20,518 nucleotides of DNA from a virus (IMGVR_UViG_2740892214_000001), one strand, 5' to 3'. Shown: positions 1,035 to 17,739, counted from the first letter of the stretch. Translations and numbers: made by a program. Notes: generated by a model from the letters alone, not told the origin.

Positions 1035-1094
1035 TCGTCATGCTCCATAAACGACAAAACCGCCCGGAGGCGGTTTCACATAAAACATTTTGCA

Positions 1095-1742
1095 TCAGCG
1101 ACCAATCACCACAACCTGACCACCGTCCCCTTCGTCTGCCGTGCTGATCTCCTGAGAAACCACCCGCGACCCCACACGCATTTCACCGTACAGAACAGGC
1201 AAAACATTGCCCTGAGCAACCATGTTATCCAGTGAGGAAAAATAGGTGTTCTGTTTGCCGTTATCTGTACTGGCTGCCGTGGACGTCCTGGCTTTCGGTG
1301 CCAGCATCTGCGCCACACCGCCCAGGATCATACTGGCCCCTGCCGCATACATGCCCGATACAGCCGCGGCACCCAGCCAGCCCACAGGGTTCCACCATGC
1401 CACCGCAATCAACGCCGCCCCCAGCACCACCTGAAATACACCGCCACTTTTAGCTCCCGCCAGACGCGGCACGATATGGATCACGGCACCATTTGCCAGC
1501 GGCTCATTAAGACGGGCAGATAATTCGGTTTCACCTGCATCACGCCCGGCAATGCGCACCTGATACCAGCCGTCATTCAGTTTCTGACGAAACGCCGGGA
1601 GCTGTGTGGCCAGCGCCCGGATGGCTTCGGCCCCCGTTTTCACACGAAGGTCGATGCGGCGGCCAAATCGTTGCAAATCCCCGTAAAGGCAGATGCGTGC
1701 CATGCCCGGTGACGCCAGAGGGAGTGTGTGCGTCGCTGCCAT
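1095..1742 (-). CDS. I: Tail assembly protein I
   Basis: 215-aa ORF starting MAATHTLPLASPGMARICLYGDLQRFGRR and ending VSQEISTADEGDGGQVVVIGR, matching lambda gpI as recalled; overlaps the 3' end of K by 103 nt, the same overlap I recall for lambda K/I. Confidence 0.9.
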   Translation of the reverse strand: MAATHTLPLASPGMARICLYGDLQRFGRRIDLRVKTGAEAIRALATQLPAFRQKLNDGWYQVRIAGRDAGETELSARLNEPLANGAVIHIVPRLAGAKSGGVFQVVLGAALIAVAWWNPVGWLGAAAVSGMYAAGASMILGGVAQMLAPKARTSTAASTDNGKQNTYFSSLDNMVAQGNVLPVLYGEMRVGSRVVSQEISTADEGDGGQVVVIGR

Positions 1743-2383
1743 TTGTCGGTATACCTCTCTCGTTTGCTCAGTTGTTCAGGAATATGGTGCAGCAGCTCGC
1801 CGTCACCACAGTAAATGGCGGCATGATTCGGCACCGATGAACCAAAACAGCACAGCAGCACATCGCCCGGCTGCGCCGCTGACAACGGCACCTGATACAG
1901 CCCTGTGGCCTCCAGATTATCCAGATAGAGATTCTGACCGTGACGCCACCAGTCATCCCCGCGATGAAAATCCTGCATCTCAATCCCCGCCAGATGATAA
2001 GCATCCCGGAACAGCGTGTAACAGTCCGTCACCCCGTGCTCAAAGCGCCGCCCGGTAAGATGCGGCACACTGCGGAATTTATGAATCTCACCCCGGCAGA
2101 CCAGCCACCAAGGCAAATCGCTCTGCACCTGCAGCCGCCTGTCAGCCTCACTCAGCCAGGGCAGACCACCGGGGTGGCTGTGGACCAGCGCCACAATCTC
2201 ACCCTGCATCTCTGCCCGCAGCCAGTCCTCCGGCGACATCCGGAAATACGCCTCCGGCTCACCGGAGATATTCACGCTGGGAAAATATCTTTCCCCCTCC
2301 GGCGTTCTCACCACGAAGCCGCACGATTCCGCTGGCGCACATCGCCGGGCGTGCGCCAGAATCGCTGATTCTGTCTGTGTCAT
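1640..2383 (-). CDS. K: Tail tip assembly protein K (JAMM/MPN metalloprotease-like N-terminal domain plus NlpC/P60-like C-terminal domain)
   Basis: Start trimmed from track ORF to ATG 2381..2383 (MTQTESAILAHARR), 4 nt after the L stop. Contains E-x(n)-HSHPGGLPWLSEAD (JAMM-type motif) and a downstream Cys-containing DCYTLFRDAYH segment. Gene order L-K-I as in lambda. Confidence 0.85.
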   Translation of the reverse strand: MTQTESAILAHARRCAPAESCGFVVRTPEGERYFPSVNISGEPEAYFRMSPEDWLRAEMQGEIVALVHSHPGGLPWLSEADRRLQVQSDLPWWLVCRGEIHKFRSVPHLTGRRFEHGVTDCYTLFRDAYHLAGIEMQDFHRGDDWWRHGQNLYLDNLEATGLYQVPLSAAQPGDVLLCCFGSSVPNHAAIYCGDGELLHHIPEQLSKRERYTDKWQRRTHSLWRHRAWHASAFTGICNDLAAASTFV

Positions 2384-2387
2384 GGGA

Positions 2388-3086
2388 TTACTGCGAAAGT
2401 TTGTTAATGGAAAGGAAGCCGCCAAAGTTGCCGACGTTATTGCGAAACTTACAACCACTCAGGCATTTGCTGCATTTATCCTTCGTGATATCGGACGTCG
2501 GCTGGTCATATTCATCAGCGACAGCCGGACCGCTATAACCGCACTCATCACCGCGATAGGTCCAGGTGCAGGTGTTGGCCAGCATGATGCGCCCCGGAAA
2601 AACAGCACCATCCGTTTCCGTCGGTGTGGAGAGCACAAAGGAGGCACTGACCGCACTCAGTTCGCTACACTGCTCGATGCGCCAGCGGCTGATCACCTCC
2701 TGCTCCGGATCGGCGTCGCTGTTTCCGTTGACGAAGTTCACCGCATCCAGAAAACGGGCGTAAACCTTACGCCTGACCACCGTTCCGCCGACCAGACTCT
2801 GCAGGTCTTCCGCCATCCCGGTGACCATGCCGTGCAGGTTAGAGACCGTCAGTGTCGGACGGGCAGCACTGCCCTTACCGTTCAGTTCAAATCCCGTCCC
2901 CTGAATGGGGTATGCCTGATACTGCCGCCCCTGCCAGGTGACCGGCTCACCTTTTTCGTTCTGCTCATTACAGAAAAAATAACGTTCACCACCGACCTCT
3001 GTCAGATCGATTTCCCAGAGCACCACCTGGGCTGACTGAGTAAGGCGTGTCGTCTCATGATGTGTTTCCTGTGGAATATCCTGCAT
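2388..3086 (-). CDS. L: Minor tail protein L
   Basis: 232-aa ORF, near-identical over most of its length to lambda gpL as recalled (MQDI.QET...VVLWEIDLTEVGGERYFFCNEQNEKGEPVTWQGRQYQ...); same length as lambda L. Confidence 0.95.
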   Translation of the reverse strand: MQDIPQETHHETTRLTQSAQVVLWEIDLTEVGGERYFFCNEQNEKGEPVTWQGRQYQAYPIQGTGFELNGKGSAARPTLTVSNLHGMVTGMAEDLQSLVGGTVVRRKVYARFLDAVNFVNGNSDADPEQEVISRWRIEQCSELSAVSASFVLSTPTETDGAVFPGRIMLANTCTWTYRGDECGYSGPAVADEYDQPTSDITKDKCSKCLSGCKFRNNVGNFGGFLSINKLSQ

Positions 3087-3095
3087 CAGGGCCTC

Positions 3096-3425
3096 CTATG
3101 CCACGACCTGTTCAAAATCTGCCGTTATGGTTACCCACAGCGCCCCCACGCTTGCCGACCATTTACGACAAACCACCCTGATCGGCTTCCAGTCATAAGG
3201 TGGCGTCCACTGAAATGCGCGGACGCCACCGTGCCGTTCCAGAAAGGCTTTCAAAGATGGGTGTTCACATTTACGAACACGTATCGTCACGCTGTAAGTC
3301 GACAACTGGTTATTCAGTCCCGCCGCACGACGCTGTTCATAACCATCGCCCAGCTTCACTGTCACCACTTTCGGCTCTGATACCACATTCATATCCGGGC
3401 GCACTTTCCAGTGAAACGTCTCCAT
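3096..3425 (-). CDS. M: Minor tail protein M
   Basis: 109-aa ORF METFHWKVRPDM...GDGYEQRRAAGLN...FQWTPPYDWKPIRVVCRKWS...FEQVV, lambda gpM-like; start ATG shares one base with the H stop (TAATG). Confidence 0.9.
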   Translation of the reverse strand: METFHWKVRPDMNVVSEPKVVTVKLGDGYEQRRAAGLNNQLSTYSVTIRVRKCEHPSLKAFLERHGGVRAFQWTPPYDWKPIRVVCRKWSASVGALWVTITADFEQVVA

Positions 3426-6400
3426 TACCGATATGCTCCACTTAACCGACCACCATCACGGGCCTGCTGTTGCATAAAGTCCGCTGCCGCTTTTTTCCCG
3501 AGGTCATAAACCACCTTCAGGGCAGCCGGACCTATCTGCCCGTTCGTGCCATCGTTATTGATCTCGATGTTGTACTGCGGGGCAAACATCGCCATACCTG
3601 AACCACCAATATCCGCCACAACCCCCAGCTTACCGTCAGCACCACGACGCAGAGGCAGAATGGCTTCAGGCCCAGCTTCCCCCATCACACCTGCACCTTT
3701 TGCAAAAGCAAAAAACGTCGGACGGTTAACCACCGTGCCACTGTAGCGACTCAAATCAGCAGACTGATAAACACCACCATCAGCATTGGGCGTCACACTG
3801 GCAGTTGCTGCACTCCCCCAGCCAAACGCCGAACCAATCCCCTTAACTGCCTGCATCATGGACATCTGAGCCATGATTTTTGCCAGATCAGAAAGGAGCG
3901 AGGCGGTAAAAGATTTGAAGTTCAGTTTTCCGGTGGTACAGAATGTTGCCAGTGCATTACCTGCACTATTAAATGCCGCTGTAAGCATCTGCTCCGCAGT
4001 GCCTGCCGCATTATCCGCATCTGCCGTGAAATTCTGAAACGCCCGCATGGCACCGTTTTTCCAGTTACCCTGAGCAATTTCAAGCTGTTGCCAGTAACGG
4101 CGATTCTCATTCAGTTGCCTGTTCAGGCTCTCCGTCAGCGCCTGCTCGGCCTTTCTGTAGTCATCCGTGTTATATGTCCCTTTCTGCTCACTATCCCGCC
4201 TCAACTGCTCCAGCTGTTGCTGGTATTTCTGGCGAAGGCTCAGTTGTACCTGATATCGCTGCCGCTGCTGATCACCCATACCCACCGTGGCGATATCCAG
4301 GTCATGTTGCTGACGCTGAGCGCGCTCTTCTTCAGCCAGTTGACTGGTCAGCTGAATTGTTTTTTTCTTCAGATCGTTGAGTGCCGTCTGTTTCTGAAGC
4401 TCCTGCTGTTTTACATCCAGCAGCGTCAGTGCCTGAATCAGTTCATCTTTACGGGCCAGCACACTCTTTTCATCTGCCGTCAGTTTTTTCCCGTCCAGGT
4501 CGCTGATGCGCTGCTGCAGAGCCAGAAGCTGTTTATGCGCTTCTGTCATCCTGTCAGTGGCAATGCCTGCTGACTGTCTGGCAGCAGCAATCTGCCCTTC
4601 CACCTGTGCCTGTTGCTGGCTGTACTGCAGCAATAACCGGGTGGCCTCATCATTACGGGTTTCGCGTGTTTTTTTCTTACCGGATGCCAGGGCTTTCTCG
4701 TAACGTTCATTTTCACGTTGTATCGCCGCATCCCTGACAGCCTGATCGGCGTACTGCATGGCATTAATACGCGCAATTTCACGCTGATGTCGTGCTGCTT
4801 CCGTTTCATTCATCCGGTTCAGTGCAGCATTTTCAGCATTACGGCGTTTCTGTTGCTCCTGATAATTCCGCTCTGCCTGCTCTTTTGCATCCTGCAAATC
4901 CTTCTGGCGTTTTTTCTCCTGAAGCTCGTTAAGACGCTGCTGATCGTATTCAACCTGAGAAGATGATGCCGTCCAGGGGAGTCTTTTCGCCCGCGATACT
5001 TTCTCCTGCAAAGTGGCAATCTGCGCATCCAGCGAATCTTCACGACCAATATTCATGGCCGCATCCCAGAACTGCTTCCACCAGTCAGACAAGGTTTGCA
5101 GCGTACTACCCAGCGCATTGAGGTTATTATCAATATCCGCAGTACGCCGACCGGTTTCCTCTGCCAGTGCAAACATGGCTATCCGTGCCGCATCACTGGA
5201 GCGCCCCTGCTCTCCAAGGACGCGTATCTGCTCAAGCTGAGTGGCAGTAAGAAAATGCAGCTCATTGTCCAGAGCCTTCGCGGCATTTACAGGATCATCC
5301 TTCAGCCGCTTAAACTGATTTATGGTATCGCTGATCGACTGGCCAACCGATCGCTCCATCTGTGCGGCAGCTCTCGCCACCATACCGATATCGTTTCCAC
5401 GAAATGCACCACTCCCCACCACCTGAGCCAGCGCACCGGCTGCAGCATGTTGCGTGATACCATTCCCGGAAATAGCACGACTGAGCGTCCACAGCTGCCC
5501 GGCAGTGACTCCGGCATAATGCCCCGTCAGCGACAGCTGGCGGTTAAATTCTTCCCCCTCCTTCTGACCGTCATACCAGGCTTTACCCAGACCATAGACG
5601 GCCGCGGTAATACCGCCAATAACCCCGCCCAGCATCATGCCTTTCGGTGACATCAGTGTGTCTATCCATCCGGCACGGTTAGCCAGCGTTATCCCGGATC
5701 CCCTCAGCGCCCCTAAATTGCCGCGGGCCAGTTCACCTATCAGAACGCCTATCTCCTGGCGGGCCGCTGCACTTTTCAGACCCAGCGAATGCGTGGCTTT
5801 TCCTGCCCGCTCCATTTTGCGGATATACACTTCTGCAGCACTGCTTACCCCCAGCTGGGCAGCCCTGGCACGAAGCAACTCAGAAGAAGAAAGATTCTGG
5901 CGGGTTGCCTGCTCTTTAAGCTGACGGATAAACGCCACTTTCTGTCGGGTAGCCTCTGCCTCAGCCTGCGTAAGAACACGGGTTTTCGCCGTAACCTCAG
6001 AAATCAGCGCCAGATAATCCTGCTGACCAATCCCGCCACTGTTTCTGGCCTGTCGGATCTGCTGCTGAATACGCTGTAACTCCTGCAACCCCGCACTGGC
6101 CTGTTTCACACTGTCAATCTGACGATAAAACGCGGCAGCCGCTTTATCCTGAGCCTCCGCCAGAGCCATGGCCTGTGCCTGTTCCTCGCGCATTTTCTGG
6201 CTCAGTGCCTCCATACGCTGGCGGGTTTGCTCCACCTCGCGGGCCATGCGTTCATGAGCCTGTGCGCTCTTCTCCACCGTCTGCGCATGGACGGATGCGG
6301 CTGTTGCAGCCGAAGAAGCCGCCTGCATTGTCTGCCGGGCGGCCTGAGTCTGACGCTCCATAAAACGCTGCATACGGGCAGAAGACCGTTCTGCATCGCT

Positions 6401-6499
6401 GGCTGCACCATTCAGAAGGTTTTTGATACGGGGAATTTCATTTTTAAACTCTGCCGCATCAATCCCCAAATCAATGACCAGGTTGGCTATCTGGTCCAT
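3425..6499 (-). CDS. H: Tail length tape measure protein (about 1024 aa)
   Basis: Start trimmed to ATG 6497..6499 (MDQIANLVIDLGIDAAEF, aligns with lambda H N-terminus) with GGAGG 7 nt upstream. C-terminus NNDGTNGQIGPAALKVVYD matches the lambda gpH C-terminus; long Q/A/E/R-rich presumably helical central region. Confidence 0.9.
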   Translation of the reverse strand: MDQIANLVIDLGIDAAEFKNEIPRIKNLLNGAASDAERSSARMQRFMERQTQAARQTMQAASSAATAASVHAQTVEKSAQAHERMAREVEQTRQRMEALSQKMREEQAQAMALAEAQDKAAAAFYRQIDSVKQASAGLQELQRIQQQIRQARNSGGIGQQDYLALISEVTAKTRVLTQAEAEATRQKVAFIRQLKEQATRQNLSSSELLRARAAQLGVSSAAEVYIRKMERAGKATHSLGLKSAAARQEIGVLIGELARGNLGALRGSGITLANRAGWIDTLMSPKGMMLGGVIGGITAAVYGLGKAWYDGQKEGEEFNRQLSLTGHYAGVTAGQLWTLSRAISGNGITQHAAAGALAQVVGSGAFRGNDIGMVARAAAQMERSVGQSISDTINQFKRLKDDPVNAAKALDNELHFLTATQLEQIRVLGEQGRSSDAARIAMFALAEETGRRTADIDNNLNALGSTLQTLSDWWKQFWDAAMNIGREDSLDAQIATLQEKVSRAKRLPWTASSSQVEYDQQRLNELQEKKRQKDLQDAKEQAERNYQEQQKRRNAENAALNRMNETEAARHQREIARINAMQYADQAVRDAAIQRENERYEKALASGKKKTRETRNDEATRLLLQYSQQQAQVEGQIAAARQSAGIATDRMTEAHKQLLALQQRISDLDGKKLTADEKSVLARKDELIQALTLLDVKQQELQKQTALNDLKKKTIQLTSQLAEEERAQRQQHDLDIATVGMGDQQRQRYQVQLSLRQKYQQQLEQLRRDSEQKGTYNTDDYRKAEQALTESLNRQLNENRRYWQQLEIAQGNWKNGAMRAFQNFTADADNAAGTAEQMLTAAFNSAGNALATFCTTGKLNFKSFTASLLSDLAKIMAQMSMMQAVKGIGSAFGWGSAATASVTPNADGGVYQSADLSRYSGTVVNRPTFFAFAKGAGVMGEAGPEAILPLRRGADGKLGVVADIGGSGMAMFAPQYNIEINNDGTNGQIGPAALKVVYDLGKKAAADFMQQQARDGGRLSGAYR

Positions 6500-7195
6500 A
6501 ACGCACACCTCCGGAAATACCTTCCCCAAGATGCATCAGTTCTTCGTCCGTTCGCTCCGGTATCCCGTTCTCTTCCGGTAAAAGGCTGAAATCAGCCACC
6601 GCAGCATCACTGCTGCCGGACACCATTCTCACGATCAATGCCTTCAGCGAGGCAAACTGCGCATCCATCCACACATCACTGAAGCTCTGCATCCGGAAAT
6701 AATCGCCCCACTCACCAAGCTCAGTGGCCGACATTTCCGACAGCATCCGCCGCCAGTCTGCCCGCCGGAACTCCCGGGCAAGCCGCATGACAAACTGCAT
6801 TTCCCGCGTCAGGACTTTTCCGGCGTCAGCACCTCATGCTCCAAATCCCCGGCATTCTCAATGGCTCCCATACCGCTCAGCGACAGAACCATCTCCGCCC
6901 CCGCTCCCAGGGCATCATACGACCATGTTGTAATAACGGATGCGCAAAGCGTCTCAACATCCTGAGACTGTTCCGCATTCCACAGTGAGCGGGAAACTAG
7001 CCAGGCATTGATATCCATCCCCATCCGCAGAAAAGCAATCTGTCGTTCAGCCTCCGGCAGTTCTCCCTCTTCGGCATCAAACTTTGCCGTTCGCTGCTGA
7101 ACAAACGCCAGATATTCAATTCTCTGCAGCCCGGACAGCTCACTGAGCACCACGGACTGCTTTTCATAATTAAACGTGCCCTGTTTCAGAAACAT
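6471..7195 (-). CDS. T: Tail assembly chaperone GT fusion made by programmed -1 ribosomal frameshift near the end of G (T segment 6471..about 6818)
   Basis: ORF 6471..6800 (REFRRADWRRMLSEMSATELGEWG...GISGGVRYG) matches lambda gpT and lies in the -1 frame relative to G. The T frame is open only from 6833 downward and G stops at 6809, so the shift must occur in that interval; the only slippery candidate is GGAAAAG at 6815..6821. Confidence 0.6.
6809..7195 (-). CDS. G: Tail assembly chaperone G
   Basis: MFLKQGTFNYEKQSVVLSELSGLQRIEYLA resembles lambda gpG (MFLK...LSELSALQRIEHLA). Start at second ATG of an ATGATG pair (alternative 7198); GGTGGAG SD just upstream. Track ORF N-terminal extension overlaps the upstream hairpin and is rejected. 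Confidence 0.85.
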   Translation of the reverse strand: MFLKQGTFNYEKQSVVLSELSGLQRIEYLAFVQQRTAKFDAEEGELPEAERQIAFLRMGMDINAWLVSRSLWNAEQSQDVETLCASVITTWSYDALGAGAEMVLSLSGMGAIENAGDLEHEVLTPEKS

Positions 7196-7211
7196 CATGT
7201 TCTCCACCTGC

Positions 7212-7235
7212 AAAAAAGCCCCGGATAATCGGGGC
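7212..7235 (-). terminator. Intrinsic terminator-like hairpin between V and G (minus strand)
   Basis: Minus strand reads GCCCCG-AUUAUC-CGGGGC followed by UUUUUUG, 6-bp GC stem; lies between V stop (7256) and the G SD/ATG. Confidence 0.5.
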
Positions 7236-7255
7236 AAATGATGAGTATCGTCCTG

Positions 7256-7999
7256 TTAACCTGCGGCGCTGACGGCCACCGTAGCCACTGCCACAAAATC
7301 GCCGTCAGAAGTCATGCCCACAATGCTGACACTGCCCTGCTTCACGCCTTTCACCGTGGCCACAAGCCCGTTCAGGGTCACCGTGGCAGTCTGTGGATCT
7401 GTCGAATGCACACTGATCGCTTTGTCACTGGCTCCGTCAGGTTTTACTGTAAAGGTCAGCGTGGTGGTTGCTCCCACTTTTACACTGGCAGATGCCGGTG
7501 CCACCGTCAGCCCGGTAACGCCCACGGTTTCAGTGCCTTCTTCTGCCAGATACGGACGCCCCACACCGCTGATTTTCACTGTGCGGGTCATCACGTCTTT
7601 TGAGGCAATGGTTTTACCCAGTGAACTCAGCCAGCCACGGAAAACATCAACAGTACCGTTGGGATATTTGATACGAAACGCGCAGACTTCACCGGAGTCG
7701 AACAACTGAACCAGTTTTTTCTGCCCGCTGTCACCCGGACGCCAGGCCAGCGTCGCCGAAGTATCACCGACGGATTTCTGCCCCTGGGTTGTCGTTTTCC
7801 AGTCTGCATCTTCATCATCGAGATAAGTGTCATCTTCTGCATCAGCGGTCATTTCGCCAGGCTGCAGATCCTTCACCATCGCAAGACGCAGCCAGTCAGT
7901 GTCCGATAAAGGGTTCGCAAACGCATCGCCCTTGCCGGTGTACATCCAGAACGTCGTTCCCGCACCTTTCGTTTTTGCCAGTGGATTTGGTGTGGTCAT
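7256..7999 (-). CDS. V: Major tail (tube) protein V with C-terminal Ig-like region
   Basis: Start trimmed to ATG 7997..7999 (MTTPNPLAKTKGAGTTFW) with AAGGAGGTG SD; strong match to lambda gpV (..GDTS.TLAW.PG...NGTVDVFRGW.SS.GK..). C-terminal ~90 aa Thr/Val/Ser-rich, as in the lambda gpV Ig-like extension. Confidence 0.9.
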   Translation of the reverse strand: MTTPNPLAKTKGAGTTFWMYTGKGDAFANPLSDTDWLRLAMVKDLQPGEMTADAEDDTYLDDEDADWKTTTQGQKSVGDTSATLAWRPGDSGQKKLVQLFDSGEVCAFRIKYPNGTVDVFRGWLSSLGKTIASKDVMTRTVKISGVGRPYLAEEGTETVGVTGLTVAPASASVKVGATTTLTFTVKPDGASDKAISVHSTDPQTATVTLNGLVATVKGVKQGSVSIVGMTSDGDFVAVATVAVSAAG

Positions 8000-8009
8000 T
8001 GCCACCTCC

Positions 8010-8411
8010 TTAATTCGTGTACGTGATCTGGTACGTGATTTCCGCCATCGCCCAGGTGGCCATCTCATTATCACGTTGATAGTTAAAACCGAGTGGGATC
8101 AGGGTGTCGATGAGTCCGGAAAGTGCCGGTACATCATTCAGGGCCGGGAAAATGGTGCTCTCCATCCACATATCCAGCTCTGAATCCGGTGCCTGTGCCC
8201 GGATGAAGACGGCAATATGCAGAACAGCCTGCCAGTCATCTTCATCCGTCATTTTTCCGGTGTACTGAGCATCACTCAGCCACACCGCCACGGCAGGCAG
8301 TTCCTGCGCATCAATAAATGCCGGAAGCCCGTCAAAAAATGTGGCGCTGTCTCCACACTGTTCCCGAAGGCGTGCCAGTACGGCCTGGCGGATTTGTGTA
8401 TGTCGGTTCAT
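8010..8411 (-). CDS. U: Tail terminator protein U
   Basis: MNRHTQIRQAVLARL...ATFFDG.PA..D....PAVAV.L..A.YTG...D.D.WQA.LHI.VF..AQ.PDSELD.WMES matches lambda gpU. Start chosen at ATG 8409..8411, which overlaps the Z stop (ATGA); alternative start 8423. Confidence 0.85.
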   Translation of the reverse strand: MNRHTQIRQAVLARLREQCGDSATFFDGLPAFIDAQELPAVAVWLSDAQYTGKMTDEDDWQAVLHIAVFIRAQAPDSELDMWMESTIFPALNDVPALSGLIDTLIPLGFNYQRDNEMATWAMAEITYQITYTN

Positions 8412-8986
8412 CGGGTCAGCCATAACCTCAGTTGTTGTTTCAGTGCATACCCCAGCTGTTTCGGCATTTCCGCAGCAATGATGCGATCGCGGGCATCTTC
8501 AAATGCCTGTGTCAGCGGTCCGGACAGCGGGATTTTCACCACATCAATGGGGTAACGATTTTTGCCATCAATACGCCGCATCACATGCCAGCGACCATTC
8601 GCCAGTTGCTGAATAAACGCATCCCGGAAAAGATATTTACCCACCTTCAGCACGCTGCCACGGTACTGCAGTTTTCCACCACGCCGGGCCAGTCTGACCC
8701 GGGCTGTCCCCAGCTTAATGGCGGGCAGATTGCCCCGGTTAACGCGGATCCTGGCCGTCATTTTTCCTGACGGACTGGCTTTAAACACCCGGACACGCTG
8801 ACGTACCAGTTTCAGGGGGATCCCTTTCACCTGGTTATCTCCCGCAACGGTATTCCCGGCAACCTGCCGGGTGGCAACCGAGACCGCTTTCTGTGCCACA
8901 CGGTTTATCGCCCATGCGCTGGCCTGTGGCACCATACGGGTATCAAGGCTGTTCAGATTGCGGATGGCATTCTCAAGCCCCTTCAT
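8408..8986 (-). CDS. Z: Minor tail protein Z (tail completion)
   Basis: 192-aa ORF, same length as I recall for lambda gpZ, in the conserved position between the head-completion genes and U. The assignment rests on length and synteny; I did not align it residue by residue against lambda Z. Confidence 0.75.
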   Translation of the reverse strand: MKGLENAIRNLNSLDTRMVPQASAWAINRVAQKAVSVATRQVAGNTVAGDNQVKGIPLKLVRQRVRVFKASPSGKMTARIRVNRGNLPAIKLGTARVRLARRGGKLQYRGSVLKVGKYLFRDAFIQQLANGRWHVMRRIDGKNRYPIDVVKIPLSGPLTQAFEDARDRIIAAEMPKQLGYALKQQLRLWLTR

Positions 8987-8997
8987 CCCACACCTCT

Positions 8998-9273
8998 TTA
9001 CTCAATAAAGATCATTGGCTTACCGTTAAAGCGTTCATGCCGTGTGACCGTCCATTGTTGTCCGTCATAAACAACGCGATCCCCGCGCCGTGGGCGGTAT
9101 CCCGAAGAAAACACCACCAGAGAGACCGCAGGTCCGGACAGAGCATTCAGCTCTGCCAGTGTTTCTCCCGGGATCACGGTCATATCGACATCATTAATCG
9201 AGGCTGTCTTTCCCATCTTTCTGACCGTGATAGCATCCATACGCGCTGCCAGCCGGGAAAAGGGATCAGACAT
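8998..9273 (-). CDS. Small head-tail joining / head completion protein (gpFII-like), function inferred
   Basis: 91-aa ORF immediately upstream of Z; C-terminal RRGDRVVYDGQQWTV resembles the RRGDTLTIGEENFWV segment of lambda gpFII; position matches FII. Confidence 0.5.
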   Translation of the reverse strand: MSDPFSRLAARMDAITVRKMGKTASINDVDMTVIPGETLAELNALSGPAVSLVVFSSGYRPRRGDRVVYDGQQWTVTRHERFNGKPMIFIE

Positions 9274-9589
9274 TGAGTTTTACCGGCACTTCTTCTGCAC
9301 TGGTTCCGGCATCTGCCCAGACAACCCCGACCAGCGGATCAGAGCCGCTGTTAGTCAGCTGAACTTTTCCGGACTTCAGATAAACCTTCTTACCCGTTTT
9401 CATGTCATCCGTTTTCAGCTTAGGCAGCATAAACACACCTTCGGTCATACCGTCGCCTGTTTCACCTTGTGGAATATCGGTCAGCGCCACCGCAAAAACA
9501 TCACCCACCTGCACCAGATCTCCGCTGCTGATGGCTGCACTGGCAACAATCGCCACCGTTTTTCCTTCTTCTACAAAATTCTTTGCCAT
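9266..9589 (-). CDS. Small head-associated protein of unknown function (possible DUF2190-like head decoration/completion protein)
   Basis: Start trimmed to ATG 9587..9589 (MAKNFVEEGKT) with GGAG 6 nt upstream; 107 aa, Gly/Val-rich; lies between the major capsid gene and the FII-like gene. Family assignment is from memory and unverified. Confidence 0.45.
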   Translation of the reverse strand: MAKNFVEEGKTVAIVASAAISSGDLVQVGDVFAVALTDIPQGETGDGMTEGVFMLPKLKTDDMKTGKKVYLKSGKVQLTNSGSDPLVGVVWADAGTSAEEVPVKLNV

Positions 9590-9632
9590 AACTGTCTCCA
9601 CACAGCCCCGTTCAGGGGCTGATTTCAGGTAC

Positions 9633-9651
9633 AAAAAAAGCCCTTACGGGC
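9633..9651 (-). terminator. Intrinsic terminator immediately downstream of the major capsid gene (minus strand)
   Basis: Minus strand reads GCCC-GUAA-GGGC (GNRA tetraloop hairpin) followed by UUUUUUUGU, about 25 nt after the capsid gene stop. A second hairpin (CAGCCCC-UGAAC-GGGGCUG, 9603..9621) follows just before the next SD. Confidence 0.55.
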
Positions 9652-9675
9652 CATCAGAGTTGTTGTCTGCGATGT

Positions 9676-11634
9676 TTACGCCGTACATTTCACCAGACCG
9701 CGGTGATCAACTGGCGCGACACCGGCGTCAATACGCACTTTCGTTGTCACGCCATCCACACTGAAGCCCTCCATCTGATCAATATATGGCGTATCCACAC
9801 CGTTGAGATAAGCCACTTCAATCGTATCGGAGCCTTTTGACGCAGCCAGGTAGAAGGTGGTCTGGCTGTTATCATCAAGACGAGGCTCTGCAATAACGGT
9901 CGCAAAATCTTTCACCGGGTTAATAATACCGGCGTTAATGTCAGCCCCCTTGACACTTGAGGAGCGAATGACCTGGTTAGCAACAGACTCCATCGCCGTC
10001 GGTACCAGTACGAACGCAGGACGAATATTCAGATGACGCTCCCCCTCTTTCTGAACACGCATCAACTGGCGGGCTTTATCCAGCGATGCCACGTCCATTG
10101 CAGCGTCCTCCAGTACGTTTGCATGTTTCGCTTTATCGAACAGACTTACATTATCTGTGGAGATTTTCGGGTTAGACGTCAGAATGGCATAAACCAGATC
10201 GGCAATAGTGGATTTCGCCGCACGGCCCAGCTTCATCGGGACATCGGTCAGCATATTCAGATCATCATTGATAATGGCCTGACGGGTGATACTGAACAGC
10301 TCGCCATAGGTCGCCAGTGCAATAGTGGCCTGTTTATCTCCGGTGGTGACGTATTTATATTCCGCCCCTTCACGCACCTGACGCAGAGCACTGAAGCCCC
10401 CCATACCCACGCGATGGGCAATTTTAAAATCAGACAACTGACCTTTCCGCGTCCACTGTTCATAGGTTTCAGGGGCATCCTCCCAGCCCTGCAGAATGGC
10501 TTTGTTCGCAACATCCAGCAGAATATTACCGAAGTCAGACGTACTGTGTGTGAACGCCGCACCGACCATCTGCATCGGGTTATAACCGGAAACCCCAATA
10601 CCCCGTTCAGTCAGTGACATACGGGCATATTCACGCAGGGTCATCCCGTTGTAGACATTATCACGTTCGGTTTTTTCAAATCCGGCACGCGCCATCAGCG
10701 CCTGGCGGATCCCGTCCCCCACAAAATTACCGTTACCGGCATAAATATGAGCCGGGGTATTTTTATTGGATGGCGTGGACTCGCGCCCCATCTCGTTCAA
10801 CAGCTTTTCGCGGGCCTGCTCCAGCGAACATTCAGGATCGGCAAGACACTGAGCCTGCAGCGTCTGATAACGCCCGCCAAACATGGCAAACAGATCATTA
10901 ATACCGTTTACACGCGCTTTTTGCTCTGCCAGTACCTGCGCACGGATACTGTTTTCATCCACCACGGGTGCTGCTGCCTGCACTGGCGTCCGGGAGGCTG
11001 CAGGTTCATTATCCTGTACGCGTGGAGCACTGTTGCGTGGCGGAGTAATCATGTTTCGAATGGATTCCGGCATCTTTTTAAATTCCTCTGTACGTTTTGA
11101 CTGAATACATGCCATTGCCTTAACGGCTGGCGTCACCTGATCAGCAAATCCATGTGCCAGACATTCGGCACCGGACATCCAGGTCTCATCCGCCAGCATG
11201 GCAGCAATTTCATCGGTGGTTTTCCCGGTTTTCTGTGCATAAGCGGGTAACAGAACCGCCTCAACCTTATCGAGCAGGTCGGCATAGGTGCGCATGTCCT
11301 CCGCATCACCGCCCGTAAAGCCAAATGGTTTATGAATCATCATGAAGGTGTTTTCCGGCATAATGACCGGTTTTCCCACCATCGCAATGACCGACGCCAT
11401 TGACGCCGCCACACCGTCGACATAAACGGTAATGGACGCACCATGTGTTTTCAGCGCATTAAAAATGGCGATGCCTTCAAAGACATCGCCACCCGGTGAA
11501 TTGATATGGAGATTAATGTGGGTGATATCGCCCAGTGCATTCAGATCACTGATAAACTGCTTCGCTGTAACACCCCAGAAACCAATCTCGTCATAAATAT
11601 AAATATCCGCGTCACTCTGGTGACCAGCCTGCAT
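9676..11634 (-). CDS. Fused prohead protease (ClpP/S14-like) - linker/scaffold - HK97-fold major capsid protein (about 652 aa)
   Basis: Start trimmed to ATG 11632..11634 (MQAGHQSDADIYIYDEIGFWG), the first ATG after the portal stop. N-terminal domain has ClpP-like motifs (IYIYDEIG, INSPGGDV, MIHKP); a Pro/Ala/Gln-rich linker follows; the C-terminal ~330 aa resemble HK97-type major capsid proteins. Confidence 0.8.
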   Translation of the reverse strand: MQAGHQSDADIYIYDEIGFWGVTAKQFISDLNALGDITHINLHINSPGGDVFEGIAIFNALKTHGASITVYVDGVAASMASVIAMVGKPVIMPENTFMMIHKPFGFTGGDAEDMRTYADLLDKVEAVLLPAYAQKTGKTTDEIAAMLADETWMSGAECLAHGFADQVTPAVKAMACIQSKRTEEFKKMPESIRNMITPPRNSAPRVQDNEPAASRTPVQAAAPVVDENSIRAQVLAEQKARVNGINDLFAMFGGRYQTLQAQCLADPECSLEQAREKLLNEMGRESTPSNKNTPAHIYAGNGNFVGDGIRQALMARAGFEKTERDNVYNGMTLREYARMSLTERGIGVSGYNPMQMVGAAFTHSTSDFGNILLDVANKAILQGWEDAPETYEQWTRKGQLSDFKIAHRVGMGGFSALRQVREGAEYKYVTTGDKQATIALATYGELFSITRQAIINDDLNMLTDVPMKLGRAAKSTIADLVYAILTSNPKISTDNVSLFDKAKHANVLEDAAMDVASLDKARQLMRVQKEGERHLNIRPAFVLVPTAMESVANQVIRSSSVKGADINAGIINPVKDFATVIAEPRLDDNSQTTFYLAASKGSDTIEVAYLNGVDTPYIDQMEGFSVDGVTTKVRIDAGVAPVDHRGLVKCTA

Positions 11635-11647
11635 CCTGAACCAGGAA

Positions 11648-13156
11648 TTATTCTTCGGACTGGTCGTCGGTGTGCTGCGGCTCCTGTCGTTTCGTTGCGG
11701 CACTGCTGCCTCCTTTATCACTGGCCGGATCGGTATCAAATACCAGATCCAGCTTGCGGTTTTCATCAATTTCGGCCTTGCGCCGACGTTTGACATCATC
11801 CGGATTACGACCACCTGCACGTACCCAGTCTGATTCTGTCGCCGCTCCACCACGAATCTGGATTTTCCAGGCCTCAGCCTCCTTAACAGGGTCAATCCAC
11901 GGCATCACCGGTCCGGAATACACCGCGGTATACAGTGAAGAACGGTCAAGATCGCGGGGTAGCCTGATAACACCGGATGCCACAGCCTGTTTCAGCCAGG
12001 CACGGTACATCGGGCGGGTGACGGCACCAATAAACCAGTCCTGCAGGATCAGGTAGCCATCAGTGGATTCAACCAGCTCCTGACGCTGGGCGCTGTAAGT
12101 GCCGTTATAGTTGCGCGCTGTACTGGAAAAACTCAGACGACTGCCAGCCGCCACTGCACGCAACTGACCATTACGAAAAGTTTCAAGATTAGGATTGGGG
12201 CGATCCGACTTCACCATTCCGATTTCTTCGCCGGGTTTCAGATCGTCGTAAATAATGCCTGGCTGAATGGTAAGCTCGCGTTCCTTATCCTTGCTGCCAT
12301 TACCATCCGGTTCATAGCTCTGCCCGTCGCCTTTGCGGATGTACATCCCCAGAGCAGCGGCGATCCTTGCTGCAGTCAGCTCATAATCTTCATAATCTTT
12401 CAGGGCACTGAGGCGGATCAGCACACCGGACAACAAAGACGTCCCGCGCATCTGGTGCAGACGGCGAACAAATTTAAGATGCAGCATTCGCTCTGCATCC
12501 ACTTCTTTGGTTTCCATCTGCCGTCCGGATACGGGACGGCTTTTATACACCAGATATTTTTCGGGACGCCCCCAGTCATCAACAAACACGCCCTGATTCA
12601 GCCTGTTGCTCTCATCACTGGTCATGGGAATAAAGTCTGGCTCGAGCGCCTCCAGCCAGAAATGAACACCGGCAGAAGGCGTCAGGCTGTTTATGCGCCC
12701 GGAAACCATCTGGGCAAACACCTCACCATCGCGCAGCCAGGTACGCAGCATCAGACGTTCCAGCATCGGACGGGTAAACTGCCCGGTGACTTCCGGGCTG
12801 ACAGACCATTCACTCCATCGGGTGCGAATCTCCGCTGCCAGATCACGGGCAATGGCCCCATTGCGTAATACCGGATGTGGCTCGACAATAATCCCGTTTT
12901 TCCCCACCACCCGTTCTTCCAGCTTGTCAAATACACCAATAACCAGATCGTGGTTGTTATCAAGGTAACGGGCCTGCTCACGTAACGACACGGCCCCGTA
13001 CTGGCTTAGCTGGTCGGCAGTTCGGTTCTCCCGTCGGGCTTTGTGTGTCCGCGTCGTTTTTACGGCTTCATAAGCCTGGATCACCGCACGGGAACGCAGC
13101 CTTGCCGCTTTCCATCTAGGTGAAAAAACGCCAATCACATCATCAAGAATTGCCAT
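11648..13156 (-). CDS. Portal protein
   Basis: About 502 aa; start trimmed to ATG 13154..13156 (MAILDDVIGVF), which overlaps the upstream gene stop by one base. Sits between terminase/W and the capsid gene; acidic C-terminus. Family (lambda gpB-like) is inferred, not verified. Confidence 0.8.
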   Translation of the reverse strand: MAILDDVIGVFSPRWKAARLRSRAVIQAYEAVKTTRTHKARRENRTADQLSQYGAVSLREQARYLDNNHDLVIGVFDKLEERVVGKNGIIVEPHPVLRNGAIARDLAAEIRTRWSEWSVSPEVTGQFTRPMLERLMLRTWLRDGEVFAQMVSGRINSLTPSAGVHFWLEALEPDFIPMTSDESNRLNQGVFVDDWGRPEKYLVYKSRPVSGRQMETKEVDAERMLHLKFVRRLHQMRGTSLLSGVLIRLSALKDYEDYELTAARIAAALGMYIRKGDGQSYEPDGNGSKDKERELTIQPGIIYDDLKPGEEIGMVKSDRPNPNLETFRNGQLRAVAAGSRLSFSSTARNYNGTYSAQRQELVESTDGYLILQDWFIGAVTRPMYRAWLKQAVASGVIRLPRDLDRSSLYTAVYSGPVMPWIDPVKEAEAWKIQIRGGAATESDWVRAGGRNPDDVKRRRKAEIDENRKLDLVFDTDPASDKGGSSAATKRQEPQHTDDQSEE

Positions 13157-13368
13157 CAGAACCTCGCCAGCCGGTACCCGGGATGCCCCCGTCGTCGTGT
13201 AATCAGAGCCGCAAGGCGGCGCTCCCACTCCTGCCGTCCCTGCCGGATCTCAGATAAGTTTTCCATGGTCATCTGCTGACCATTAAAGGTGACGGATTTT
13301 CCGTCCAGCACCGCCATTTCAGCTTCCATATAACGCTGAATCATGGCTTCGATATCATTCTGGTTCAT
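13156..13368 (-). CDS. gpW-like head-tail joining / head completion protein
   Basis: 70 aa (MNQNDIEAMIQRYMEAEMAVLDGKSVTFNGQQMT...RRRGHPGY); size, position between large terminase and portal, and the C-terminal RRRG motif resemble lambda gpW. Start ATG overlaps the large terminase stop (ATGA). Confidence 0.55.
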   Translation of the reverse strand: MNQNDIEAMIQRYMEAEMAVLDGKSVTFNGQQMTMENLSEIRQGRQEWERRLAALITRRRGHPGYRLARF

Positions 13369-15467
13369 AACCATCCTCCGGAAGTCAGCCAGGGGTTAAC
13401 ATCGTCAGTTACTGTTTTCTTCCGTTTTTGTTTTTTAACAGGCGTGGATACCGGTTCCGGTGAGGATGACGGTTCGGTACTGTCCTGGACACACTCCAGC
13501 CAGGTTTCCCGGCTCGCCCACTCCGGTGCATCCGGCCAGCGGATCTTTTCGTATCCATGCAGAATGACCAGAGCCTCGGCATACACCATCAGGTCAAAAG
13601 CTTCGTTGGCACCGCGACCCGGCTTACTCCATTTCCCGTCACTGCTCCGCTCTTCATACGTCAGTTCGTCGTAAAACCAGCTCCCCAGCCAGTCAGGGAA
13701 ATGCACATAGCCGGGACCTGGCGAGTCACGCCATAACGCGTTATTCACCCGGTCTTTCAGTGCATCCGTCTGAAGAAGCCAGAGCGGCACATCACCTGCG
13801 GCCTGCGCCCGTCGGCCCGTTCGTCCGGTGTTATCAGGGAATGTACGGGTGATCAGTTTTGCGCGCCGGATGCTGTCGCCCTTAAACAGGTAAATACGTT
13901 TACCAAGGCCATCACGACGGCAACGACGCCAGAATTTATAGGCATTATCAGTGACCCCGTCTTCACCGCCGGAGTCCACCGCCATTGCCATCAGTCGCAT
14001 TTGTTGAGAAGGATCGGAGGCCAGCGGCCAGCTTTTATGAAAAACATCCGTCAGCAGGACATCCCAGTCTTCCGGATAGCTGGCCGGATCAATTCGCTGG
14101 CTCTCCCCGTCGCTGTCACCGCGCAATGACTGCGTGATGTTGTAACGATCAATAATCCAGCGTTCGCCACGGCTGCCATAGCCCGTTACCTGAACCACAA
14201 AACGGCGATGACGTCCCGCCTGCACATCCACTGTCGCCACAAGGAAATTAACGCCATCCGGCACACTGCGGGAAGGAACTGGCTCTGCCCGCTGCTCAAG
14301 CAGTTCACTTTTTCGTTGCTCCATGCTGGCGCGGGGAAGATAAGGTAATCCCCAGTCGGTATTGATAACCGTCTTGAGTGTTTCTTCACTTCCGGTTGTC
14401 TCGTATTCCTGTTCTGCAGTAAGCAGTTTGTAAACGAGTTGCGAGAGTGTCTGGTAAGCAGCTGCCGGACCCTCCATCCAGAATGACGCAATACGTGAGC
14501 GTCGGGGATCACCATAACGACTGCCATCCGCATTGATGGATTCACCATCCCGCAACCAGACCCCACGTCCGTTCAGCTCACGTTTGTGTTCAGGCATAAT
14601 CCGTCCTGAACAGGAAGGACACTGAATATAAGCCGCCTCACTTGCCAGCACGGGATCGGCAATATCACGGAAACCAGCAACCACATCGCCGCAGGGCTGA
14701 AAATACTCACCACAGTGTGGACAGGGCCAGTACCAGCGACGGCGATCACCACGGTTATAGAGCGACAGGATCCCCGTGGTTGGTGGAGCCTCATGCGGTG
14801 AAGTCCGTCGCCATTTCACATCCTTCACATCCCTGCCGGGGGAACTCTCCACCAACGTCATACCGCTGGACATAAATGTGGTGGTACGTTTTGAGGCAAG
14901 AGAGAAGGCATCCCCCTCGCCATCAATATCTTCCGGAAAACGGTCATAATCCGTCAGCGCGACGCATTTATAATCTGATGAGGACATGATATTGACTGAC
15001 GGCCAGCCGATTTTCAGGTAGTTGCCAGCAAGGAATGTTCTGTCATAAACGTTGTTGTCATTTTTGTTCGGACTCAGGCGACTGACCACTTCCGGGCTGA
15101 CGCGAAACGTTCTGGCGAGTCGTTTTTTGGAGTGTTCGCGGGCTTTTTCCTCCGTCATCTGAATGATCAGCATATCAGCAGGATCGCAAATCACGTTGTA
15201 AATCACCCAGCCGTCAATCAGGCCGATAGTCTTGCCGGTTCGTGCCGGGCCAACAAATATCACTGCGTCGTATTCACGCGAGGCCAGGCAGTTCATCGGC
15301 TCAATAACATACGGTGCCACCAGCGGATCCCACGGGACTGAGTTCCCGGCCCCCATGGGCACCCGCATATACTGAGCAACGGCATCAGCAACCCGCATTC
15401 GTCTCGGTGCGCGAAGGATATAACCTGAATCGGTTCGTGCTGCCTTTGCGGTTTCCTGATTCAGCAT
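13365..15467 (-). CDS. Terminase large subunit (GpA family)
   Basis: 700 aa; Walker A-like GPARTGKT; CPHCGEYFQP and WIIDRYNI segments resemble lambda gpA CPHCGEE and WLIDRQII; start ATG overlaps the small terminase stop (TAATG). Confidence 0.9.
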   Translation of the reverse strand: MLNQETAKAARTDSGYILRAPRRMRVADAVAQYMRVPMGAGNSVPWDPLVAPYVIEPMNCLASREYDAVIFVGPARTGKTIGLIDGWVIYNVICDPADMLIIQMTEEKAREHSKKRLARTFRVSPEVVSRLSPNKNDNNVYDRTFLAGNYLKIGWPSVNIMSSSDYKCVALTDYDRFPEDIDGEGDAFSLASKRTTTFMSSGMTLVESSPGRDVKDVKWRRTSPHEAPPTTGILSLYNRGDRRRWYWPCPHCGEYFQPCGDVVAGFRDIADPVLASEAAYIQCPSCSGRIMPEHKRELNGRGVWLRDGESINADGSRYGDPRRSRIASFWMEGPAAAYQTLSQLVYKLLTAEQEYETTGSEETLKTVINTDWGLPYLPRASMEQRKSELLEQRAEPVPSRSVPDGVNFLVATVDVQAGRHRRFVVQVTGYGSRGERWIIDRYNITQSLRGDSDGESQRIDPASYPEDWDVLLTDVFHKSWPLASDPSQQMRLMAMAVDSGGEDGVTDNAYKFWRRCRRDGLGKRIYLFKGDSIRRAKLITRTFPDNTGRTGRRAQAAGDVPLWLLQTDALKDRVNNALWRDSPGPGYVHFPDWLGSWFYDELTYEERSSDGKWSKPGRGANEAFDLMVYAEALVILHGYEKIRWPDAPEWASRETWLECVQDSTEPSSSPEPVSTPVKKQKRKKTVTDDVNPWLTSGGWL

Positions 15468-15961
15468 TACTCCTCCTGCTGTAATTCCTCCTCATCATCC
15501 GCACCTGCTTCAGTCACCCGCAGGGCTATCTGATCGCGCAGATCATCAATAATGGACTGAACACGGCTCACAGCGGCAGGCTGCAGACCGCAGTCACGTT
15601 CAAGAATATCCGGTAATGTCTCCAGCACCTGCACGACCGCTTTTGCCCAGATGGCAAACTCCCGTCTGACATCACTGGCCGGAATGAGTTGTGCCGTTTC
15701 CTGTTCGAACTTAAGACGCTCACGTTCAGACTGATACCAGGCTTTGCGCTCATGCGCGTCCATTTCGCCTTCTGCAACCGGCGGTGGTAATGCCAGAAAT
15801 GCCGACACAATATCAACCACCCGATAAAGCTTGAGGTTGCTTTCATGCCCCCCTGCAACGGGTAGATTTTGCAGCCTTGCCGCAGCAGTCTGGCGATGTA
15901 CACCTGACAGTGCCGCCAGTTGACTGATATTAAGCGTCAGATTTTTTAACTCTCGATCCAT
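15467..15961 (-). CDS. Terminase small subunit (Nu1-like, N-terminal HTH, acidic C-terminus)
   Basis: 164 aa immediately upstream of and coupled to the large terminase; N-terminal LNISQLAALSGVHRQTAAARL is HTH-like; GGAG SD 7 nt upstream; lies about 175 nt downstream of the cosN candidate. Confidence 0.7.
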   Translation of the reverse strand: MDRELKNLTLNISQLAALSGVHRQTAAARLQNLPVAGGHESNLKLYRVVDIVSAFLALPPPVAEGEMDAHERKAWYQSERERLKFEQETAQLIPASDVRREFAIWAKAVVQVLETLPDILERDCGLQPAAVSRVQSIIDDLRDQIALRVTEAGADDEEELQQEE

Positions 15962-16064
15962 ACCCGCTCCAGAATGTTTTAAACATGCATCTTGCGAACA
16001 ACTTTAGGCAAACGGTGTTAGTGATGAACAAAAAACAATCAAAATCGACACTACAAAAATAAAA

Positions 16065-16798: not shown

Positions 16799-17266
16799 CT
16801 ACTTAATGCGCTGGGTGCGGATATATTCCTGCGCCCCTTCCAGTTGCTTCTGCATCGTCATCAACCGTTCTCTGAGGGTGAAATAATCCCGTTCAGCGGT
16901 GTCTGCCAGTCGGGGGCTGGTTGCATTATCCATGCTGGTGGGTCCGGTGGCTTCACGCACGGCTGCGGAGCAACTGGCATTGACCCGCAGGCGCTTACGA
17001 CCAGCGGCAACATCAGCGCGCAGAGTTTCATTTTCAGTTTTCGCATCGGCTAACTCCTTCGTGTATTTTGCATCGATCGCAGCAACATCACGCTGACGCT
17101 GCTGCATGTCAGCGATGGTGGCGGTCGCCTGCTTCAGCTCACTGACTTTTTTATCACGCTGTTCTTTGTAGGCGATGGCGTTATCACGGTAATGATTAAC
17201 AGCCCATGACAGGCAGGCGATGATACAAATAACCAGAGCGGAGATAATCGCGGTTACTCTGCTCAT
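16799..17266 (-). CDS. Rz: Rz i-spanin
   Basis: 155 aa; [36 protein letters not shown]...[27 protein letters not shown] matches lambda Rz; start overlaps the R stop (ATGA). Confidence 0.95.
16861..17046 (-). CDS. Rz1: Rz1 o-spanin lipoprotein, embedded in the +1 frame of Rz
   Basis: 61 aa with signal/lipobox LVVSAC and proline-rich [30 protein letters not shown], matching lambda Rz1 as recalled. Confidence 0.85.
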
Positions 17267-17739
17267 ACCTCAATCTCTCTGACCGTTCCGCCTGCTTCTT
17301 TGAATTTTGCAATCAGGCTGTCAACTTTATGCTCGAACTGACCATAACCAGCGCCCGGTAGTGAAGCCCAGATATTGCTGCAACGGTCGATAGCCTGACG
17401 AATATCACCGCGATCAATCATCGGTAAAGCGCCACGCTCTTTAATCTGCTGCAGAGCTACAGCGTCCTGGCTTTCTGGAGAAAAATCTTTCAGGCCAAGC
17501 TGTTTACGGTAAGCATCCCACCAGCGTGAAAGAAGCTGGTAACGTCCGGCGGCTGTTGATTTGAGTTTGGGGTTTAGCGTGACAAGTTTGCGAGGATGAT
17601 CGGAGTAATCCGTGAATAACTCACCACCTACAATAACGTCGTAGCCGTGATTGCGGGTTGGCTGTCGCCCGTTATCCGTTCCTTCTGACCACGCCAACAT
17701 ATCGAGGAAAGCTTTACGCTGGGAATTTAGTACCTGCAT
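17263..17739 (-). CDS. R: Endolysin R (lytic transglycosylase)
   Basis: 158 aa, near-identical to lambda R from residue 6 onward ([57 protein letters not shown]...); AAGGAG SD upstream. Confidence 0.95.

Follow-up and report, generated by a model that had tools for sequence, protein, structure and literature searches.

Does the interval from 8986 to 9676 in IMGVR_UViG_2740892214_000001, a stretch of viral DNA of 20,518 nucleotides (nt) referred to here as the window, preserve the junction of two different phages? An earlier note had placed a module-exchange boundary there, with lambda-type tail and lysis modules on one side and a non-lambda head module on the other. Our analysis indicates that the interval is very probably an ordinary head-neck-tail transition in the late operon of a Gifsy-2-type lambdoid prophage of the mEp460/cdtI lineage. 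The late genes are arranged as is classical for a lambdoid late operon, all of them on the minus strand of the window. Across the interval, the order is a tripartite ClpP-protease/scaffold/capsid gene (9676 to 11634, with the stop codon at 9676 to 9678), a terminator, a spacer, a hairpin, a ribosome-binding site with the gene of a putative decoration ("cement") protein (9266 to 9589, 107 amino acids), the gene of a predicted gpFII-type protein (8998 to 9273, 91 amino acids), and Z (8408 to 8986; PF06763, 1e-76). This prophage type is very common in Escherichia coli and already described, and the boundary is not a fresh splice between lambda and something else. The mosaic proposal is right at the depth of the family only, and it is wrong on where the lambda-like DNA of the window ends.

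We compared the window with its closest relatives. In 100-nt bins, identity to mEp460, cdtI, Tritos, and PhiR55_1 was 98 to 100% on either side of 8986 to 9676, and no abrupt change at the interval was seen against any of these four phages. Phage mEp460 (NC_019716) aligns with positions 1 to 15986 at 97.5% nucleotide identity, the alignment stopping at the end of the mEp460 record, and each gene from TerS to J is 94 to 100% identical at the amino acid level. Uniform similarity to a single reference phage across head and tail genes, which the earlier note itself had named as evidence against its proposal, is what mEp460 provides. Phages cdtI, Ayreon, phi458, and Tritos are similarly near-identical across head and tail, and like mEp460 they share with the window the terminator and the cement and FII-like genes; the mEp460 group differs from the window by small diverged patches in H (around 3700 to 4000 and around 5000) and in G. 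The more distant Fels-1 is evenly diverged over head and tail, with amino acid identities of 42 to 77%. Among 159 IMG/VR loci with identical cement and FII-like genes, identity was at least 90% over about 5 kb on both flanks, with one exception. The 861-bp boundary segment was found in 1,810 of 5,426 complete E. coli genomes (at least 80% coverage), where all four genes carry names from the Prokaryotic Genome Annotation Pipeline (PGAP). Because the flanks are intact, the identity to mEp460 is uniform, and the segment is so widely present, we conclude that the window has no recent junction at 8986 to 9676; a recent breakpoint at the site was rejected on the profiles against the four close phages and on the 159 IMG/VR loci. 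The exceptional locus (L133, 6487 to 6491) carries a 5.5-kb internal deletion that joins 9099 in the FII-like gene to 3598 at the 3' end of H, and it is probably a defective prophage.

The alternative is that a module exchange at 8986 to 9676 joined a lambda-type tail and lysis module to a foreign head and that the junction is preserved in the window. It draws on the fact that lambda homologues detectable by BLAST stop at Z: no match among the lambda proteins was found for the FII-like, cement, capsid, W-like, and TerS proteins. The protein identities to lambda on the tail side tell against it, however. They are 99% for J (N-terminal part), 95% for K, 94% for L, and 78% for I, then 56% for M, 55% for V, 53% for U, and 50% for Z, and only 38% for T, 33% for G, and 25% for H. 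On the head side, TerL has 25% and the portal 22 to 23%, and in the lysis module R has 94% and Rz 77%. The description of L, M, I, J, R, and Rz as close to their lambda counterparts therefore holds for five of these genes and fails for M. At the nucleotide level, blastn matched lambda in three stretches only, 1 to 3563, 7539 to 8659 (66.6%), and 16821 to 17721 (R and Rz, 87%), and found no similarity between 8660 and 16820. A 100-nt profile shows that the block of 92 to 100% nucleotide identity, comprising the N-terminal part of J, I, K, and L, ends at about 3,000 to 3,100, the border of L and M, past which identity drops to 55 to 71%. Since Z, U, and V are only 50 to 55% identical to lambda, H, T, and G only 25 to 38%, and the high-identity block ends at the border of L and M, there is no sharp lambda/non-lambda switch at 8986 to 9676, and the placement of such a switch between Z and the capsid gene has to be given up. 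The recent exchanges of the window with lambda-like phages lie at the border of L and M (about 3,050) and around R-Rz. Within the otherwise 95 to 100% lambda-like block, a patch of 64 to 87% nucleotide identity at about 1200 to 1600 in gene I suggests a second, smaller mosaic patch, and a small island of 89% identity to lambda is found at the 3' end of H (3501 to 3563).

The head genes had also been described as being of a different type from those of lambda. For the capsid gene this was confirmed. The gene encodes 652 amino acids from the ATG at 11634, while the mechanical open reading frame (ORF) from the TTG at 11895 overlaps the portal gene. Pfam searches with the 739-amino-acid ORF found CLP_protease (3e-36, residues 95 to 255) and Phage_capsid_4 (9e-55, residues 441 to 736), and the fusion is also supported by PHROG 133, by ClpP chains in the PDB, by the mEp460 annotation, and by the PGAP name. 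The protein is 70% identical to that of Gifsy-2 and combines an S14 N-terminal part with an HK97-fold C-terminal part, as in the Gifsy-2-type module. For Gifsy-2, fusion of the protease gene with the coat gene is described in a later paper (PMC12315714, citing Effantin 2010), and citing papers also describe autoproteolytic maturation of the fusion (PMC12315714; PMC8538268). The portal (11648 to 13156, minus strand) belongs to the lambda portal family PF05136 with 22 to 23% identity, and the large terminase (TerL, 13365 to 15467, minus strand) belongs to the gpA family with 25% identity. The earlier statements that the portal is of a different type and that a decoration gene is lacking are wrong, because portal and TerL fall into lambda families and a decoration protein exists.

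The two small ORFs between the capsid gene and Z had been left as uncertain, with an overlap of 8 nt. The overlap is real, a stop/start overlap of the cement and FII-like genes read from the sequence as ATGTCTGA on the minus strand (9266 to 9273), and an ATGNCTRA overlap is also present in 1720a-02, mEp213, Gifsy-2, and Fels-1. Both ORFs can now be assigned. The ORF at 9266 to 9589 matched PF09956 (DUF2190/Phage_cement_2, 9e-21), PF22758 (3.5e-5), and PHROG 122 "head decoration" (1.8e-47); its mEp460 annotation is head decoration, and its Gifsy-2 homologue is 60% identical. A cement gene directly 3' of the capsid gene, the arrangement of the Gifsy-2-type module, is also found in Gifsy-2, Fels-1, mEp213, 1720a-02, and about 35 genomes, and a paper citing the structural work describes a trimeric cement protein at the 3-fold axes of the Gifsy-2 capsid (PMC8538268, citing Effantin 2010). 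By these family matches, the ORF is predicted to encode the capsid decoration protein.

The ORF at 8998 to 9273 matched PF13856 ("Gifsy-2", 1.8e-17), PDB entry 2PP6 (Gifsy-2 STM1035, 1e-19), and PHROG 153, and it sits between the cement gene and Z as in the Gifsy-2-type module. Because profile-profile comparison with the lambda protein was weak, the link to gpFII was settled by a fold search. The AlphaFold2 (AF2) model, with a predicted local distance difference test score (pLDDT) of 79, had 2pp6 as its top Foldseek match (2.5e-8) and resembled chain 8k37_M of the lambda neck with a template modeling (TM) score of 0.72 and a Foldseek probability of 1.00, and chain 8xow_f of a lambda portal-vertex structure with a TM score of 0.69. 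PDB entries 8k37 and 8xow contain gpFII (117 amino acids), and chains M and f were taken as gpFII from their length (114/117 residues). Further matches were stopper or neck proteins of other siphophages, including the R4C stopper 8gtf_M. The gene is located between the last head gene and Z, as is the gene of lambda gpFII. The modeled fold and the gene position together argue for a gpFII-type head-tail joining (stopper/head-closure) protein, which would bind the W-type adaptor on the portal and the tail terminator U. Among the public names of the two ORFs, "DNA breaking-rejoining protein", the NCBI name of the FII-like protein, and "ATP-binding sugar transporter-like" are misnomers, and "DUF2190" is uninformative.

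How old is the pairing of this head with a lambda-type tail? We scanned genomes at the species level with an alignment of five cement sequences and obtained 55 loci. The order of ClpP-capsid, cement, PF13856 FII-like gene, Z, and U is kept in about 35 of the 55, most of them with a lambda-type V, and the families represented are Enterobacteriaceae, Yersiniaceae, Erwiniaceae, Morganellaceae, Hafniaceae, and Pasteurellaceae. Since this gene order recurs across about 35 species, in both Enterobacterales and Pasteurellaceae, the fusion-type head and the lambda-type Z-U-V tail form an ancient pairing. Other connectors and tails follow the same head and cement genes in Pseudomonas, Burkholderiales, and other taxa. 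The annotated example is MD8: phages of the MD8/F10 type resemble the window in portal (50%) and ClpP-capsid (57%) and have a PF09956 cement gene followed by a weakly Phage_attach-like joining protein, but they lack Z, U, and V, have another tail terminator and major tail protein, and carry a single terminator-like hairpin in the gap. Because MD8 shares the head and differs in the tail, a deep border between head-type and tail-type modules lies directly after the cement gene, at the equivalent of 9266 to 9273 in the window. Blocks of blastn similarity between family members end 0 to 70 nt into the FII-like gene.

MD8-type phages, which share the head through the cement gene and not the tail, and family members with junctions in this zone both speak for an exchange at the interval. 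Against a junction kept in the window stand the uniform identity to mEp460 and Fels-1 across the site, which largely refutes it, the occurrence of the same head/tail pairing in about 35 species and in one third of E. coli genomes, and the fact that portal, TerL, and the FII-like protein are themselves distant members of lambda families. We therefore regard a preserved lambda/foreign junction at 8986 to 9676 as very unlikely and an ordinary head-neck-tail transition as the far better description.

Comparison with known phages points to the Gifsy-2 type. Gifsy-2 and Fels-1 have the gene order of the window, with identities of 70 to 72% for ClpP-capsid, 60 to 63% for cement, and 42 to 45% for the FII-like protein, and share with it the Z-U-V-G-T-H-M-L-K-I-J tail, the terminator, the second hairpin, and the 8-nt overlap; they differ in that protein identity to the window is 42 to 77% throughout. 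Gifsy-2 carries virulence morons in the tail cluster, with a Lom homologue and sodC between its M and L homologues, and, unlike in Gifsy-2, the tail tip of the window (J to L) is near-identical to that of lambda. Lambda shares with the window the late-operon logic, a head-tail joining gene adjoining Z, homologous Z, U, and V genes (50 to 55%), portal and terminase in the same Pfam families, and the gpFII fold. It has a separate S49 protease (C), the Nu3 scaffold, gpD, gpE, and FI, whereas the window has a ClpP-type protease fused to the capsid, a decoration gene (PF09956) after the capsid gene, and no FI; in addition, lambda gave no match to the covariance model of the terminator and hairpin described below. 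HK97 resembles the window in that its record annotates putative terminators immediately behind both the capsid gene and the major tail gene, but its head and connector genes are unrelated in sequence (gp6, gp7, and gp10 families), and it has no decoration protein.

What, then, lies in the 87 nt that separate the stop codon of the capsid gene (9676) from the ATG of the cement gene (9589)? This gap holds, on the coding (minus) strand, a terminator, a second hairpin, and a ribosome-binding site, so that the hairpin/terminator pair mentioned in the earlier note exists. A consensus scan gave a terminator-like hairpin, GGCCCGTAAGGGCT (GGCCC-GTAA-GGGCT), followed by seven T residues at 9632 to 9652. 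The records of mEp460 and mEp213 list this hairpin as a rho-independent terminator, and it has the G+C-rich stem-loop and the U-tract of an intrinsic terminator on the transcribed strand. Next comes a conserved single-stranded spacer, (A/G)TAYCTRAAA(T), read as GTACCTGAAAT in the window (9622 to 9631) and marked by near-invariant alignment columns. The second hairpin, CAGCCCC-TGAAC-GGGGCTG (9603 to 9621, from the centroid fold), stops 3 nt short of GGAG (9596 to 9599), the Shine-Dalgarno sequence of the cement gene and itself a block of invariant columns.

The window alone would leave some room for two functionless chance stem-loops, as the consensus scan gives 8 terminator-like sites in the region against 5.1 ± 2.5 expected, and the fold of the window's own 116-nt gap has a z-score of only −1.2. 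The relatives make this explanation extremely improbable. GCCC-N4-GGG with seven T residues is invariant in 26 of 26 diverged phages and prophages, and the ATAYCTRAAA after it is nearly so. The element is kept although the flanking proteins are only 45 to 75% identical, and the spacer is far more conserved than the adjoining coding DNA. Short conserved boundary sequences in related prophages, which the earlier note had suggested looking for, are thus present. In the covariance-model alignment, the terminator stem is 100% paired in 37 of 37 sequences. The second hairpin forms in all 26 relatives from 25 distinct sequences, with a mean dG of −13.4 kcal/mol and a z-score of −4.0 by per-sequence folding. 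Four of the seven pairs of its helix are changed on both sides, and 25 compensatory cells were counted against 14.2 ± 2.3 after shuffling, a value reached in 0 of 500 shuffles; the structure of the second hairpin is conserved and its sequence is not. RNAalifold on the MAFFT alignment recovered the terminator helix only, with the second hairpin out of register; per-sequence folding and covariance-model realignment were used instead, the latter raising pairing slightly, from 74% to 77.5%. The covariance model matches strongly at the capsid-cement gap in every locus and at no other position. At least 120 IMG/VR contigs contain the motif GCCCN4GGGCT7ATRYCTRAA, and 116 of the 120 have it between the ClpP-capsid and cement genes.

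A search of the whole window against Rfam gave no match at the gathering score, and between 9400 and 9800 there was none even at E ≤ 10. A promoter in the spacer was considered and rejected, as a scan of 6500 to 12000 showed no sigma-70-like site there and TATACC is missing the T that ends a −10 box. Directly after the major tail gene V, the minus strand has another strong terminator-like hairpin, GCCCCGATTATCCGGGGC with six T residues after it (7218 to 7235); the mEp460 record lists it as a terminator, and it matches the capsid-terminator covariance model weakly (21 bits). Another weak match (16 bits, E about 0.01) was seen in phi80 between D and E, the decoration and capsid genes (L009, 6118 to 6163), and this may be a generic terminator only.

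If the window itself has no recent breakpoint, does the family recombine here? An alignment of 106 unique family sequences, reaching from −1000 to +1350 relative to the terminator, was searched for pairs with at least 95% identity on one side and at most 88% on the other, and one change-point was fitted to each such pair. There were 34 of these pairs, and they reduce to about 12 independent junctions, which fall at the window equivalents of 9703, 9613, 9568, 9410, 9314, 9253, 9232, 8933, 8921, 8888, 8870, and 8715; the scan also covered approximately 750 nt of the capsid gene farther upstream (about 9750 to 10500) and found none there. Six of the 12 lie inside 8986 to 9676, which makes up 34% of the scanned length, a proportion that is not significant alone and comes from non-independent pairs. 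Examples are L303 and L234, in which identity rises from about 78% in the capsid gene to 100% from about 9700 onward, and L342 and L281, in which it falls from 100% to about 85% at about 8900. L183 and L195, two prophages on two contigs of one Klebsiella spallanzanii genome (SB6411), go from 98% to about 55% at about 9310. In this last pair, head genes, terminator, and most of the cement gene are 96 to 100% identical, FII-like gene and Z about 45 to 70%, and the switch is at the 3' end of the cement gene. L239 and L234 also have one flank close to mEp213 and the other differing, as at a module boundary. The idea of a plausible module-exchange boundary is therefore fair for the family, from the 3' end of the capsid gene to the 5' part of Z, and does not extend to a recent breakpoint in the window.

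In lambdoid phages, head and tail genes form separate modules (PMC9836094). The zone from the 3' end of the capsid gene to the 5' part of Z is one where recombinants occur, as expected where modules make few contacts. It is established that mosaic junctions of lambdoid phages lie at gene borders (PMC9836094), as Juhala et al. reportedly showed in 2000. Z may have a history of its own within this zone. Tritos and PhiR55_1 have another allele of mid-Z at 8539 to 8711 (56 to 59% nucleotide identity), a variant shared by about 34 IMG/VR loci, and their Z and U measure 591 and 402 nt against 579 and 414 nt in the window. The Z protein of the window is 71% identical to that of phi80, 77% to that of Fels-1, 50% to that of lambda, and 43 to 44% to those of Gifsy-2 and 1720a-02, and U does not follow the same pattern, which hints at a separate exchange history of Z.

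The conservation of the terminator and spacer, about 28 nt together, could also mean that they act as a linker, a site where the cement/neck/tail cassette is exchanged against head genes by homologous recombination. In favor of this, conservation is far higher in the spacer than in the coding DNA beside it, 3 of the approximately 12 junctions (9703, 9613, and 9568) map inside the 87-nt gap or no more than about 30 nt away from it, and the change from about 78% to 100% identity between L303 and L234 is at about 9700. Cement identity to the window is also only weakly correlated with that of other genes, including its neighbors (Spearman 0.14 to 0.56, against 0.74 to 0.85 among TerL, portal, and capsid; these values are descriptive only, the loci being phylogenetically related), and family members with capsids 88 to 92% identical to that of mEp213 have cement proteins ranging from 65% to 87%. 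Nevertheless, terminator and translation functions explain the conservation fully, most junctions, counted from non-independent pairs, lie elsewhere, in the cement gene, the start of the FII-like gene, and the 5' part of Z, and a surface-exposed decoration protein may simply evolve faster. The length of about 28 nt is at the lower limit for RecA-type exchange. On balance, a linker function for the terminator and spacer seems unlikely.

In lytic growth, Q-modified polymerase would read through the terminator, which may mainly provide a stable 3' end for the capsid message or a block to stray transcription in the lysogen. The AU-rich spacer between the two hairpins would be a plausible processing site, the second hairpin may protect or insulate the 5' side of the cement translation start, and the ATGNCTRA overlap could couple translation of the FII-like gene to that of the cement gene. 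Going further, one might propose that the gap is an undescribed RNA/DNA element across Enterobacterales phages, made of an invariant 4- to 5-bp terminator with seven T residues, ATAYCTRAAA, and a covarying 6- to 9-bp hairpin that abuts the ribosome-binding site. Such an element may both set the ratio of capsid, decoration, and neck expression, by RNA processing or by 5'/3' end protection, and act as a Susskind-Botstein-style linker swapping neck-tail cassettes between diverged Gifsy-2-type heads. We put this forward tentatively and consider it rather doubtful.

Several points weigh against our reading of the interval as an ordinary transition with these components. The AlphaFold model of the cement protein is poor (pLDDT 61) and its Foldseek matches are weak (E ≥ 0.016), though all of them are small decoration chains of phage capsids, a hint only. 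The FII-like protein scored 19.2 bits against PF05354 (Phage_attach), below the gathering cutoff of 26 bits; in the reciprocal search, lambda FII against PF13856 was also below threshold (E 0.0028), and hhalign of the FII-like family against lambda and phi80 FII gave a probability of 15% (E 0.0017). The junction counts depend on non-independent pairs and on a single-change-point model, and the roles of the terminator, the hairpin, and the overlap are ones that we infer.

The remaining late genes, all on the minus strand, complete the lambdoid layout. Upstream of the capsid gene and the portal are the W-like adaptor (13156 to 13368), TerL, and TerS (15467 to 15961). Between the FII-like gene and Z is an 11-nt spacer with the ribosome-binding site of Z, AGAGGTGTGGG (8987 to 8997), read from the sequence; U (8010 to 8423) follows Z, and V, G, T, H, M, L, K, I, and the start of J follow U. 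In H, patches at 3600 to 4100 and 5000 to 5100 are only 58 to 86% identical to mEp460, cdtI, Tritos, and PhiR55_1, while the surrounding DNA is 97 to 100% identical, and at 3800 to 4000 most of the 159 IMG/VR loci are diverged or unaligned. Upstream of the lysis genes, an ORF of 350 amino acids (18155 to 19207) is named DNA adenine methylase in related phage records and has no lambda counterpart.

The main value of these results is a correction: the interval is, in all probability, the textbook border between the head module and the tail module of a prophage type that is among the commonest in E. coli, and the true lambda-like exchanges of this prophage are located in the tail tip, J to L, and at R-Rz. 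A new lead, although a modest one and for now a small unexplained extra, is the terminator with its hairpin behind the capsid gene, an element that is strongly conserved. If the element channels recombination or controls how much capsid, decoration, and neck protein is made relative to one another, it would help to explain how mosaic phage genomes keep working modules together.

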